This document shows, one piece after another, positions 24,064-38,369 of a stretch of DNA of 64,000 bases (positions are counted from its first letter, which is position 1; every line of letters begins with the position of its first letter). Source of the DNA: Escherichia phage PC3; the sequence record ON184125; one strand, given 5' to 3'. The notes under the pieces are model-generated. The model was not told the origin of the DNA. It saw only the letters and a list, made by a program, of their open reading frames with translations, and ran no database searches. A program made the translations under genes and the position numbers.

Positions 24064-24094
24064 TTCAATGTAAGATCGGGGTATAATTACCCCG
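24064..24094 (+). promoter_or_regulatory. promoter-like element TTCAAT-N12-TATAAT with TATAAT inside palindrome CGGGGTATAATTACCCCG
   Basis: Directly upstream of the gp32-like gene leader. Confidence 0.5.
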
Positions 24095-24162
24095 CTTTGT
24101 AGAAAACTGAAAATACATGTAACAGAATAGCCCTGAGGGGCGGAAACATAGGAAATTAAGAA

Positions 24163-25179
24163 ATGGGTAATTTATTCGATCGTCTGAAAGCATCCCGTGG
24201 CCAGCAAACTGAAGCTATGCAGGCGCGTCTTGCACAGCAAGGCCAGAAGTCCGGTTTCCAGAAGGATCCTCGCATCTGGAAATGGACTTGGAACAAAGAT
24301 GGTATCTCCGAGAACATCATCCGCTTCCTGCCAGTCCCGCTGGTAGACCTCAAAGCACAGGAAGAAGGAACGATCGATAAAGATCAGATCCTCACCCCTT
24401 GTGCCATGATCATGAAGCATCAGTTCCAGGGACCTGGTGGTTGGTACATTGAGAACTCACCTCAGACGTTCGGCAACGACGATCCGGTGCGCGACCATGA
24501 CCGCCCGCTGTGGGCGCAGCAGAAAGAAACGAACGACGAAAAGCTGAAGGACATCCTGAAGAAACGTCTACCCGACACCAAATACTACGCTAACATTCTG
24601 GTGATCAAAGATGTCAACGTACCGGAAAACAACGGCAAGGTCTTCCTGCTGGAATTTGGTAACGCCATCAAGAAAATCCTGGATCAGGCGCAGAATCCTA
24701 AGTTCCCAACCGACCCTAAATTCGATCCGTTCGATCTGTGGGAAGGTGCCAACCTGAACCTGAAGCTCTTTGGCGAGCAGAAGAAGTTTGGGAACTGGGA
24801 AGGTCTGGTGGCAAACTTCAGTAAGGTGGTGTGGGAGAACCCTGCCCCGCTGAGTGATGACGAAGCATATATGGAAGACGTCTGGTCTCGCGAGCACAGC
24901 CTGTTTGAATTCTTCAATCCGGCTAACTTCAAAGACTACGACTCCCTGGAAAAGCGCCTGCGCAAAGTTCTGGCAATCCCTGATGACCAGCCTCTGGTTG
25001 AAGGTGGTGCAGCCACGATGGCTCATGCTCCTAGCACCCAGACTACACATCAGCCAACTGCTCAAGACAGCCTGAAACAGCAACAGGCCGCGCCGTCGCA
25101 GGCTCAGGCTCAGTCTCAACCAGATGCCAGAAACACGGCTTCCATTGACGACTTCGAGCGGTATCTCAAGTCTAACTGA
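24163..25179 (+). CDS. single-stranded DNA-binding protein (T4 gp32-like)
   Basis: 338 aa; ENIIRFLPVP segment resembles T4 gp32 (AVIRFLP); acidic Ser/Gln-rich C-terminal tail. Confidence 0.8.
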   Translation: MGNLFDRLKASRGQQTEAMQARLAQQGQKSGFQKDPRIWKWTWNKDGISENIIRFLPVPLVDLKAQEEGTIDKDQILTPCAMIMKHQFQGPGGWYIENSPQTFGNDDPVRDHDRPLWAQQKETNDEKLKDILKKRLPDTKYYANILVIKDVNVPENNGKVFLLEFGNAIKKILDQAQNPKFPTDPKFDPFDLWEGANLNLKLFGEQKKFGNWEGLVANFSKVVWENPAPLSDDEAYMEDVWSREHSLFEFFNPANFKDYDSLEKRLRKVLAIPDDQPLVEGGAATMAHAPSTQTTHQPTAQDSLKQQQAAPSQAQAQSQPDARNTASIDDFERYLKSN

Positions 25180-25184
25180 TCAAC

Positions 25185-25210
25185 AAGCCATCTTCGGATG
25201 GCTTTTTATT
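25185..25210. terminator. rho-independent terminator shared by convergent genes
   Basis: AAGCCATC-ttcg-GATGGCTT (UUCG loop) followed by TTTTTATTTT. Confidence 0.75.
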
Positions 25211-26150
25211 TTCCCATCACGTCTTGCAATATTCCCAACAGGCTTGTCTTCTCCGCCGCCGTCAGGTTATCGTTACCCATGATGTCACGAGAGATACCTA
25301 CCGAGATGCGCTCGAAGTCCTGTATGCTTATCCCAGCCAGGTTGTTTACAAGTTGGTCAAGCTGTTTGTAAGCCAGGAGAGCCTCCCCTGTGAAGTTCCC
25401 TTCTTTCACCTTGCGATAAAGCTGTCCAGCTTTTGAGGCCGCAGTTTCCCAGTCACCACTGGTAAGAGCGTCAGCAATGCCGAGAGGAAGAAAATCGCTG
25501 GAAAGGCTGCGTGTTTCATATTCTGTCTCCGAAAGCACTTTGTTGTAAGAGAAAGAAATGTTGTACTGGTTGAACTGGTCTGTGGCGCCTTTATCCAGCT
25601 CAATAGAACTGAAATTTATTGGGTGAGCCTCGACGATGTAGACGCGGTGGACCACTTGATCTTCGGTGTCAAGCTGTTCAATGCATATGTCAGTCACGAA
25701 GTCTTCGTAATATCCCATTTTGGTGGTGTGTGGATCAAAGATCAGACTCTTCCACTTGTCCATCACAGACTTCTCATAATAGTCATTGGCTAATAAGAAT
25801 GACAAGTCGAGGTCGACGTTGGACTTGTTGTTCGGCATCTTGATGTGATTACCGTTGTTTGTCATTGGAGTAGTGTCGATACCAACCCCTGGCAATGAGG
25901 CAACCATACACATCATCTGAAGGGAACGGGACGTCTGGTTTGTCCCTCCAAAGAAAGCGTTTACAATACGGGCTGACTGCTTAAACAAGTCACCGAAAGA
26001 TGAATTGGTTCTGTACGCCTTTCCGTCATTAGCCAGAGTGGCATTGGAGTCAAAGATCCCTGGTGGTAGAGGGATGGTCACTCTGAAGCGGTTCTTGCGC
26101 GACAAGCCCCGCTGTAATATCTGTGTGATAAAATTGCGATAGTCTTCCAC
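25206..26150 (-). CDS. baseplate/tail-tube junction protein (gp48/gp54-like, tentative)
   Basis: 314 aa, GTG start with GGAG SD; TATAAATA late-promoter box upstream; family call is a weak recollection. Confidence 0.45.
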   Translation of the reverse strand: MEDYRNFITQILQRGLSRKNRFRVTIPLPPGIFDSNATLANDGKAYRTNSSFGDLFKQSARIVNAFFGGTNQTSRSLQMMCMVASLPGVGIDTTPMTNNGNHIKMPNNKSNVDLDLSFLLANDYYEKSVMDKWKSLIFDPHTTKMGYYEDFVTDICIEQLDTEDQVVHRVYIVEAHPINFSSIELDKGATDQFNQYNISFSYNKVLSETEYETRSLSSDFLPLGIADALTSGDWETAASKAGQLYRKVKEGNFTGEALLAYKQLDQLVNNLAGISIQDFERISVGISRDIMGNDNLTAAEKTSLLGILQDVMGK

Positions 26151-26189
26151 GGTGAGGACTCCACTTAAATAAAATAAAATAACTGTTAT

Positions 26190-26197
26190 TATTTATA
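26190..26197 (-). promoter_or_regulatory. T4-type late promoter box TATAAATA (minus strand)
   Basis: Plus-strand TATTTATA = TATAAATA on minus, about 40 nt upstream of the GTG start at 26150. Confidence 0.5.
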
Positions 26198-26208
26198 GGA
26201 GTTGACAA

Positions 26209-37346: not shown

Positions 37347-37459
37347 ATTTGATTGAGTTTGTTCTGAAGTCGTTCGCCTTTGGTCTGATAGCATGTGGGA
37401 TGATTACAGCTATGCTTCTCATCATAGCCCTGGTCATCCCCTTTAAGAGGAAACGCTGA
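37343..37459 (+). CDS. possible small membrane peptide (38 aa)
   Basis: MNLIEFVLKSFAFGLIACGMITAMLLIIALVIPFKRKR*, ATGA overlap with upstream stop and TGATG overlap with downstream start. Confidence 0.35.
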   Translation: MNLIEFVLKSFAFGLIACGMITAMLLIIALVIPFKRKR

Positions 37460-37671
37460 TGGAATGTTCATGCGGAGGGCAGGGCACAAGTGCTTACCTG
37501 CCATTCACCACTGTGAAGGAAGCCGAAGCCGCCGGATTTGCCGTAAGCAAGGCTCCCTGTGTAATCGCCACGAAGGATTGCCCGTGCTGTAAGAGGCACT
37601 CTCAGGACGTCTTCTACGCCCCTGATGCGCGTCCGGCTACGGTCAACCTACTCTCACTGATGAGGAAGTGA
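37459..37671 (+). CDS. small Cys-rich protein
   Basis: 70 aa with CSCGG and CPCC clusters. Confidence 0.45.
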   Translation: MECSCGGQGTSAYLPFTTVKEAEAAGFAVSKAPCVIATKDCPCCKRHSQDVFYAPDARPATVNLLSLMRK

Positions 37672-37672
37672 C

Positions 37673-37894
37673 ATGCGCAAGTATTTCAATTGGCTGTTGG
37701 CAAGCCCCTGATGCGCTGAGATCCGTTGTCTAATCGATGCCATTGACGCCAAGGCTGTTTACAAAGCCCTCTCCCGACATCACAAGCGCTAGATTAATCG
37801 CACAGAGGCTCAGGCCGAAATTAAAAATCGTGAAGAAGTCCACAAGGCTCTGGGTTTCATAACAAATAATTCAATAAACTATTCACCCATATAA
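37673..37894 (+). pseudogene. possible decayed ORF: single reading frame interrupted by two in-frame stops
   Basis: Frame from ATG 37673 reads MRKYFNWLLASP-TGA-CAEIRCLIDAIDAKAVYKALSRHHKR-TAG-INRTEAQAEIKNREEVHKALGF... Confidence 0.25.
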
Positions 37895-37895
37895 T
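37870..37895 (+). promoter_or_regulatory. promoter-like element TTCAAT-N14-TATAAT
   Basis: TTCAATAAACTATTCACCCATATAAT about 28 nt upstream of ATG 37924. Confidence 0.5.
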
Positions 37896-37923
37896 ACATG
37901 GGAACTTACAGAAGGAACAGACC

Positions 37924-38265
37924 ATGACTACACTCGTAGAAACATTATTCCCAGGCTGCGTGCTTGGGCGCGGCGGATCCGAAGCCAACGGGCTACCGAT
38001 TGACGTCGAACCTCAGAACTGTGTTATTGTTGACAAGTTTCACGACAACCATTATGTCCTGAACAATCGTCGTGACCACTATCTTGTTTCCGTAGGAGAT
38101 TCTTTGGTCAGTCTGCGCATCTGCAAGGCTATGCCAGGATCCGGCTATGGAGCATTCGCCTATATTCACAGCGTGTCAAATGACGAGCTGGGTAAAGAAG
38201 CTCTGGTTGAAAAATTCAAGAGTTGGAAGGATTCTTTCACCTCAATTGAACCTCCGAAGAAATAA
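37924..38265 (+). CDS. hypothetical protein
   Basis: 113 aa, AAGGAAC SD-like sequence upstream. Confidence 0.6.
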   Translation: MTTLVETLFPGCVLGRGGSEANGLPIDVEPQNCVIVDKFHDNHYVLNNRRDHYLVSVGDSLVSLRICKAMPGSGYGAFAYIHSVSNDELGKEALVEKFKSWKDSFTSIEPPKK

Positions 38266-38336
38266 CTGAGGACTACACACTGACCTCATTATCGGTCAGG
38301 CAAAATCTCACACCCGCCAATAATCTATTGAAGTCC

Positions 38337-38369
38337 CCAGGGTTATAATAGCAGCACATATAACCCTGG
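38337..38369 (+). repeat. 11 bp perfect inverted repeat containing TATAAT
   Basis: CCAGGGTTATA-atagcagcaca-TATAACCCTGG ending 9 nt before ligase ATG. Confidence 0.8.

Follow-up and report, generated by a model that had tools for sequence, protein, structure and literature searches.

Inverted repeats over TATAAT elements in the replication gene cluster of an Escherichia phage are candidate stem-loops of read-through mRNA

Results

Four TATAAT elements are enclosed by inverted repeats

In this study, we analyzed a 64,000-nucleotide stretch of Escherichia phage PC3 DNA (sequence record ON184125; the whole stretch is called the window below), in which four promoter-like TATAAT hexamers are enclosed by inverted repeats. 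We favor, with moderate confidence, a reading in which these repeats are stem-loops of plus-sense read-through mRNA that straddle internal promoter-like sites, the consequence being specific to each site. The four sites are heterogeneous, comprising an overlap of a terminator and a putative promoter (site 4, 29077-29109), a candidate mask of the Shine-Dalgarno (SD) sequence in the style of phage T4 (site 3, the ligase leader at 38333-38373), and two conserved hairpins (site 1, 24077-24094; site 2, 35313-35337). All four belong to a plus-strand cluster of replication and nucleotide-metabolism genes (gp33, gp32, tk-like, td, dUTPase, uvsX, gp41, and ligase), where the spacers between genes at the sites are 75-113 nt long.

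Between positions 23000 and 39000, the window is 100% identical to Escherichia phage PH4 (ON184126.1; window position equals record position minus 64000), which belongs to the family Ackermannviridae, subfamily Aglimvirinae. Related phage genomes number approximately 280 and fall in Agtrevirus, Limestonevirus, Kuttervirus, Taipeivirus, and more distant genera. Homologous upstream regions were taken from 8 annotated relatives, from 21 IMG/VR Ackermannviridae contigs found via the ligase protein, and from 20 contigs found via the DNA pattern of the conserved gp32 leader; this pattern was used instead of a gp32-based search for IMG/VR loci, which returned mainly distant T4-like phages and 2 useful loci. 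A scan of positions 23500-39000 against Rfam at E ≤ 1 found no known RNA family.

All four inverted repeats over TATAAT that a preliminary description of this DNA had located are present at their coordinates. They had been called perfect palindromes; the inverted repeats are real, but their arms are separated by spacers and they are not strictly perfect palindromes. The core GGGT(T)ATAAT, said to recur, is found at three of the four sites, and the reported identity of TATAATAGCAGC at 29087 and 38344 was confirmed. Because the bases after TATAAT at the ligase site vary between genera, this identity is not conserved and is treated here as incidental.

The window contains 33 TATAAT hexamers on both strands, 14 in intergenic and 19 in coding DNA. 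A hexamer was counted as enclosed if it lay within a perfect inverted repeat with arms of 6 bp or more and a loop no longer than 14 nt; exactly 4 of the 33 qualified, and these were the four sites above. Shuffling of the flanks gave an expectation of 0.93 enclosed hexamers for the intergenic set and 0.75 for the coding set, and the latter contained no enclosed hexamer; the four inverted repeats exceed chance. Compared with dinucleotide shuffles, the RNA folds of sites 1, 2, 3, and 4 had minimum free energies (MFE) of -12.7, -14.2, -20.4, and -17.3 kcal/mol and z-scores of -3.3, -5.4, -6.5, and -5.3, respectively. TATAAT is invariant at the four sites in every genus sampled, save for TATTAT in Limestonevirus at site 4, whereas the neighboring loop bases vary among relatives, which indicates that the hexamer is constrained for its sequence.

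Strand-specific pairing fits an RNA helix

Two explanations had been offered for the repeats, namely, binding sites for a dimeric regulator overlapping the -10 element and RNA hairpins sequestering leader sequence. In the first, a dimeric phage or host regulator bound over the -10 element would repress or activate the promoter. Like palindromic repressor operators, the four sites are inverted repeats with arms placed symmetrically around or beside the -10 element, and a gene for a zinc-ribbon "regulatory protein" lies nearby in relatives. Unlike such operators, they have no common half-site: the arms of sites 1, 2, 3, and 4 are CGGGGTA, GGTCATAG, CCAGGGTTAT, and AAGGGGTTGCTAT, and the spacers between them are 4, 7-9, 11-13, and 1-3 nt. 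A shared half-site at fixed spacing was rejected because the arm sequences and the spacing (1 to 13 nt) all differ; no single dimeric regulator could bind all four sites, and four or more separate ones would be required. The arms also change among relatives with pairing kept, and the conserved U-tract of site 4 is typical of a terminator.

The strand on which pairing is kept bears on the same question. Non-Watson-Crick cells of the alignments are overwhelmingly G·U pairs on the plus (mRNA-sense) strand and are frequent at sites 2, 3, and 4; at such pairs the duplex DNA is asymmetric and the minus-strand fold is less stable. The minus-strand fold was the weaker one in 33 of 37 sequences (13/13 at site 2, 12/15 at site 3, and 8/9 at site 4), and at site 2 the plus-strand fold exceeded it in stability by a mean of 7.9 kcal/mol. 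Plus-strand fold energies were nearly constant across taxa, and minus-strand energies were variable. This pattern is the one predicted by selection on a plus-sense RNA helix, not on a symmetric protein site or a cruciform. Duplex symmetry was likewise not kept across the set of sites; the 6-bp core arms of site 2 are symmetric and stay so when they change, as co-evolution with a regulator would give, which alone is compatible with DNA recognition. On these comparisons, we reject the operator explanation for the four sites as a set. The second explanation was right in kind, but it can be taken literally only at the ligase site, where the SD sequence GGAG lies in the consensus stem. Elsewhere, the 29077 element is by its features an intrinsic terminator, and the hairpins before gp32 and at 35313 lie upstream of, or at, the predicted transcription start (+1).

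The ligase SD sequence lies in the stem of site 3

Site 3 folds as a plus-strand hairpin (38333-38373) in which 38333-38335 pair with 38371-38373 and 38337-38346 with 38360-38369. In the DNA, the repeat at 38337-38369 has 11-bp arms and an 11-nt loop, outer GTC/GAC pairs extend it to 38333-38373, and PH4 has an additional pair, 38347-38359. The TATAAT hexamer (38344-38349) occupies the top of the 5′ arm and extends into the loop, with a predicted +1 at about 38356 in the loop, and the SD sequence GGAG (38368-38371) lies inside the 3′ arm, ahead of the ATG at 38379. Both GGAG and ATG are invariant among relatives. RNAalifold analysis of 15 sequences gave a consensus of 13 pairs (14 in most taxa) with GGAG wholly paired, and 97.6% of cells were paired, compared with 26-52% when the partner was slid. 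This enclosure is found at the ligase site only, the SD sequences of sites 1, 2, and 4 being outside the stem. Upstream of the -10 element, 14 of the 15 distinct sequences carry TATTGAAG (38326-38333, plus strand), the reverse complement of the TTCAATA box described below.

Because there is no plus-strand terminator-like site between a sigma70-like promoter near 36085 and the ligase gene, the sequence makes read-through into ligase plausible. In the read-through RNA, the SD sequence would be masked and ligase would be poorly translated, and RNA started at the internal promoter would lack the 5′ arm and be well translated.

The promoter and hairpin of ligase form a cassette of about 55 nt (38320-38378) that is conserved though the upstream gene differs between genera, so the cassette stays with the ligase gene. 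The sequence AATCT(n)ATTGAAG was observed both upstream of the ligase -10 element (38323-38333) and at 36111-36124, downstream of the -10 element of the sigma70-like promoter before gene 36153; both copies are conserved in relatives.

The apex of a putative terminator at site 4 spells a -10 element

The GCTATaATAGC motif (29085-29095) is the tip of a 13-bp plus-strand stem (29077-29103; 29077-29089 paired with 29091-29103, including two G·U pairs), with TATAAT (29087-29092) at the apex, the U-tract TTTTGTTT (29102-29109) directly after the stem, and a TTCAAT box (29066-29071) 15 nt before the -10 element. A terminator scan returned these 13 pairs followed by TTTTGTTT as the top terminator-like match of the region. 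Among 9 distinct sequences, 97% of cells were paired, with G·U pairs at positions that depend on the genus; the TTCAAT box was invariant and the U-tract was conserved in all genera. The fold energy was -17 to -21 kcal/mol in all genera, and phiEa2809 reaches the same energy with different stem bases and a bulge. These sequence features identify site 4 as an intrinsic (Rho-independent) terminator whose apex spells a -10 element. The terminator would end the upstream unit, and its apex would double as the -10 element that restarts transcription. In LIMEstone1 and Magnus, the annotation of this element is a terminator, and in Ag3 it is an extended -10 element.

The scan listed none of sites 1, 2, and 3, where the tails are CTTTGTAG/CTGTAAAT, TCTGAATG, and AGACACCA. 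The possibility that all four sites are terminators was rejected because a U-tract is present at site 4 only.

Two conserved hairpins precede gp32 and PH4_000119

Site 2 is a plus-strand hairpin at 35313-35337 with a 9-bp RNA stem (35313-35321 paired with 35329-35337) and the loop GUAUAAU; its DNA core, TCATAG-ggtataatt-CTATGA (35315-35335), has perfect 6-bp arms. The hexamer lies at 35323-35328 with a predicted +1 at about 35335, and the upstream box TTCAAT(AA) (35301-35306), 16 nt before the -10 element, is invariant in 13 distinct sequences. The arms TCATAG/CTATGA become TCGTAG/CTACGA in Limestonevirus and GATCATGA/TCATGATC in Taipeivirus. Across the 13 sequences, 97% of cells were paired and 3 pairs were changed on both sides; the covariation score was reached by none of 500 shuffles, slid controls paired at only 28-45%, and the RNAalifold consensus was the same helix. 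The SD sequence AGGAG (35350-35354) lies outside the stem. Regarding the gene that follows, the annotated start of PH4_000119 is 35379, whereas an SD sequence AGGAG and an ATG at 35361 are invariant across relatives, whose genes begin there; the PH4 start was probably mis-called, judging from this alignment.

Site 1 is a shorter plus-strand hairpin, CGGGGTA-taat-TACCCCG (24077-24094), with a 7-bp stem (24077-24083 paired with 24088-24094) and a 4-nt TAAT loop. Its TATAAT (24082-24087) has a predicted +1 at about 24094, which is the end of the 3′ arm, and a TTCAAT box ahead of gp32 (24064-24069) lies 12 nt before the -10 element and reads (T/A/C)TCAAT in relatives. The stem is stable (-12 to -17 kcal/mol) in Aglimvirinae, Taipeivirus, and phiEa2809; it is lengthened to 9 bp in Taipeivirus, with one G·U pair and an outer pair changed from C-G to G-C, and is in a shifted register in phiEa2809. 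Further downstream, the gp32 leader (24124-24145) holds ACAGAATAGCCCnnnGGGGCG, a small GCCC/GGGC hairpin that is exact in 20 IMG/VR Ackermannviridae contigs; if the analogy with gene 32 of T4 holds, it may belong to an operator for gp32 translation.

At both sites, no U-tract follows the stem and the SD sequence is not overlapped. The stems end approximately at the predicted +1; because the hairpins are thus upstream of or at this position, a transcript started from their own TATAAT would have a leader without them, and only read-through RNA would contain them. Their overlap with the promoter would result from spacers of only 75-113 nt.

A TTCAAT-TATAAT motif precedes DNA-metabolism genes

All four sites have a perfect TATAAT, and the -10 element of a sigma70 promoter is a hexamer close to this sequence. 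A canonical sigma70 promoter was defined further by a -35 element with at least 4/6 matches to TTGACA, 16-18 nt upstream, and in this region only 28114-28142 qualified in the promoter scan. We found instead that TTCAAT-N9..17-TATAAT occurs 6 times, always on the plus strand, compared with 0.04 expected occurrences. The TTCAAT boxes start at 13006, 22892, 24064, 29066, 35301, and 37870, the observed spacing is 12-16 nt, and five of the six motifs bear an inverted repeat over the promoter. The sequence TTCAATAA occurs 13 times, compared with 2.2 expected. The ligase site and the minus-strand site at 48862 (see below) carry the reverse complement, TATTGAAG, in place of the TTCAAT box. Because the spacing does not fit a sigma70 -35 element, TTCAAT-N12-16-TATAAT may represent a phage-specific, middle-like promoter class.

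Related cases are found elsewhere in the window

Upstream of nrdA, a plus-strand hairpin (12999-13031) with CGCCGCC/GGCGGCG arms holds TTCAAT in its loop, and TATAAT (13026-13031) follows immediately 3′; sequence variation among Limestonevirus, Agtrevirus, Kuttervirus, and Taipeivirus is confined to the loop, with no change in the stems. On the minus strand, the terminator-like hairpin GAAGGGGGAGTATATACTTCCCTTC (48862-48886) has a TATA-rich apex (TATATAC) and a T-rich tail, with TTATTGAAG upstream, and its stem covaries between Agtrevirus, Kuttervirus, and Taipeivirus (AAGGGGGAGTA/TACTTCCCTT versus AAGGAGAGTA/TACTCTCCTT). At 59307-59361 on the minus strand, the -10 region TTGGTGTATAAT is brought together with the SD/ATG region ATACACCAA-ATG of gene 58806-59306 by a long-range stem, within which lies another, conserved hairpin, GTTCC...GGAAC. 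Here, TTGGTGTAT pairs with ATACACCAA in PH4 and TGTCCTCGG pairs with CCGAGGACA in IME250, covering the SD sequence GAGGA; in Magnus, two 5-bp segments give the same architecture as in PH4 and IME250 by different sequences. The weakest case, CCCAT-ataatac-ATGGG at 37886-37902 (plus strand), surrounds the TATAAT at 37890-37895, with TTCAAT at 37870; its MFE is only -5.2 kcal/mol (z -1.2), and its stems are invariant among relatives, so it carries no covariation information. Taken together, these related cases suggest that the design recurs and that the four sites are not coincidences.

Other features were noted in the window. At 8403-8450, a 12-bp inverted repeat, ATTTTGCTCATT/AATGAGCAAAAT, lies downstream of a TATAAT, and its 3′ arm covers the ATG of an unannotated 28-codon open reading frame; here too, a start codon may be masked by a hairpin that has a promoter at the 5′ arm. 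The tail of the terminator hairpin AAGCCCC-ttcg-GGGGCTT (7590-7614) runs into TATAAATA, a T4-late-type motif, and thus terminator and late-promoter motif overlap. The stretch 52757-53072 is intergenic in the PH4 annotation yet matches coding sequence in PhaxI, Magnus, and IME250, and it is probably an unannotated minus-strand gene; an inverted repeat at 52987 on the minus strand was dropped for this reason.

Discussion

Each of the four hairpins lies at a junction between genes of the replication cluster, with the AT-rich -10 element in its loop or apex. The whole hairpin would be part of any transcript arriving from upstream. An RNA initiated at the internal promoter would have its first nucleotide in the loop or where the stem ends on its 3′ side, and the 5′ arm would be missing. 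What follows from this would differ between the sites, as described above. In the case of sites 1 and 2, we can only guess that the hairpins serve as 3′-proximal structures of the upstream message, such as a decay barrier or a pause.

Several observations weigh against this reading. We infer promoter activity, start sites, read-through RNA, and every effect on expression at the four sites, and we found no mapped transcription starts or 3′ ends in the literature for any Ackermannviridae phage. The promoter scan, which required a canonical sigma70 -35 element and spacer, listed none of these sites. Conservation in related phages, which the preliminary description had proposed as a test, holds in that pairing is kept as the stems change between genera, but the stem of site 1 is degraded in Kuttervirus (approximately -2.5 kcal/mol) and site 2 is not evident in phiEa2809, so both hairpins are dispensable. 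At site 3, the covariation is one-sided (CG/UG, AU/GU/GC) and not significant, being equaled in 135 of 500 shuffles, and the comparative support is moderate; constraints on the promoter and SD sequences could partly explain the conservation. The three exceptions to the strand asymmetry at this site are PH4-type phages, in which the minus strand folds better than the plus strand and a plus-strand C·A becomes G·U on the minus strand. In addition, the predicted probabilities that the SD sequence is unpaired are similar in long and short RNA folds and do not discriminate between them, and the proposed effect on ligase translation is argued from the modeled stem energy.

The alternative that survives best, possible in our view though clearly less probable than stem-loops of read-through mRNA, is that ordinary intercistronic hairpins and ordinary promoters merely overlap and that nothing depends on their nesting, even at ligase. 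Short spacers and an AT-rich hexamer that fits best in a loop would produce such overlaps. Intergenic DNA of this phage is also dense in hairpins: its 4.7 kb contain 45 inverted repeats of 6 bp or longer, compared with 204 in 59 kb of coding DNA. Non-terminator hairpins at gene junctions are common in this phage, as at 15377-15396 and 10589-10606, where GC-rich intercistronic hairpins have neither a U-tract nor a -10 element. Moreover, the position of the hairpin relative to the -10 element differs between sites, and the promoter motifs remain in the genera that have lost site 1 or site 2; for these two sites, independent elements crowded into 75-113-nt spacers are a possible and simpler reading. 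By contrast, the ligase 5′ arm, -10 element, and SD sequence form one 13-14-bp helix in four genera, and the minus-strand stem at 59307 has the same pairing of -10 and SD regions by different sequences in three phages, which is hard to obtain from overlap alone. The inverted repeat over most of the TTCAAT-TATAAT motifs points in the same direction.

An improbable, broader extension is that the replication promoters of Ackermannviridae form a "hairpin-gated" class, with TTCAAT and TATAAT systematically in the loops of conserved hairpins and with DNA or nascent-RNA structure controlling initiation by a phage-modified polymerase. If this were true, the hairpins would be more than terminators or ribosome-site masks, and extrusion of the DNA would perhaps depend on replication or supercoiling. 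Slightly more doubtful still is a purely DNA-based version, in which an extruded hairpin or cruciform would present the -10 element in a single-stranded loop and tie promoter use to supercoiling or replication, in a manner resembling the hairpin promoters of the phage N4 virion RNA polymerase or plasmid single-strand promoters. Promoter hexamers are indeed in loops flanked by GC-rich arms at several sites (TATAAT, and TTCAAT at 12999), and the short loops of sites 1 (4 nt) and 4 (1-3 nt) favor extrusion. However, the 7-13-nt loops of sites 2 and 3 should extrude poorly, judging from general knowledge of cruciform energetics. Both strands must pair in a cruciform, yet the minus strand is weak at sites 2 and 4, and the plus-strand-specific wobble pattern fits RNA; no evidence of a hairpin-specific polymerase turned up, although no search for one was made. 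Operators for dimeric regulators are the least probable explanation, given the lack of a common half-site and the G·U pairs that break the symmetry of the DNA at sites 2, 3, and 4.

The Ackermannviridae are ViI-like phages with several members in use for biocontrol, and their promoters and terminators published so far are predictions from pattern searches (PMC3121705, PMC3296691). The present analysis yields a testable map of the replication gene cluster with a proposed non-canonical motif, TTCAAT-N12-16-TATAAT, that is repeatedly nested in conserved RNA structures, and it corrects the annotation of the 29077 element, which carries a terminator label in some genomes and a promoter label in another. 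If confirmed, the ligase site would show that a T4-style mechanism is not confined to late genes of T4-type phages but operates in another family and with promoters of another class.

Site 4 and the minus-strand hairpin at 48862 resemble known intrinsic terminators: the stem is long and GC-rich, the loop is short, and a conserved U-tract is present, directly after the stop codon of the upstream gene. Site 4 is unlike typical terminators in that its apex is an AU-rich perfect -10 element that is invariant across genera, apart from the Limestonevirus change; other terminators of PH4 have tetraloops such as ttcg, gaaa, and aaac.

The promoter-like motif recalls the MotA/AsiA-dependent middle promoters of T4, in which a MotA box, (a/t)(a/t)(a/t)TGCTTtA, lies 12 ± 1 bp from the -10 element and whose genes are served by both read-through and their own promoters (PMC2988021). 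Both have a perfect -10 element, no -35 element at sigma70 spacing, and a conserved box, which in our motif ends 12-16 nt before the -10 element. Both also precede DNA-metabolism genes (here nrdA, gp32, the tk/td cluster, and ligase) that would also be reachable by read-through. They differ in that the box is TTCAAT(AA) or its reverse complement rather than a MotA box, and in that its spacing is looser (12-16 versus 12 ± 1).

Hairpins that sequester a ribosome-binding site and contain an internal promoter are known for T4 e, soc, 49, and I-TevI and for mobE of phage Aeh1. In the T4 cases, read-through RNA masks the ribosome-binding site, and transcripts from the promoter in the 5′ strand are translated (PMC3014915). 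The ligase site and the minus-strand stem at 59307 similarly put the SD sequence in a long helix with the promoter -10 element in its 5′ strand, so that only read-through RNA could form the helix. However, the T4 cases use late promoters (TATAAATA, gp55), whereas the ligase site has a sigma70-type TATAAT with a TTCAAT/TATTGAA box; they concern lysis, decoration, or endonuclease genes, whereas the ligase site would control a replication enzyme and is known from sequence alone. With these differences, the ligase site is a clear candidate for a T4-style mechanism that tells read-through mRNA from self-initiated mRNA.

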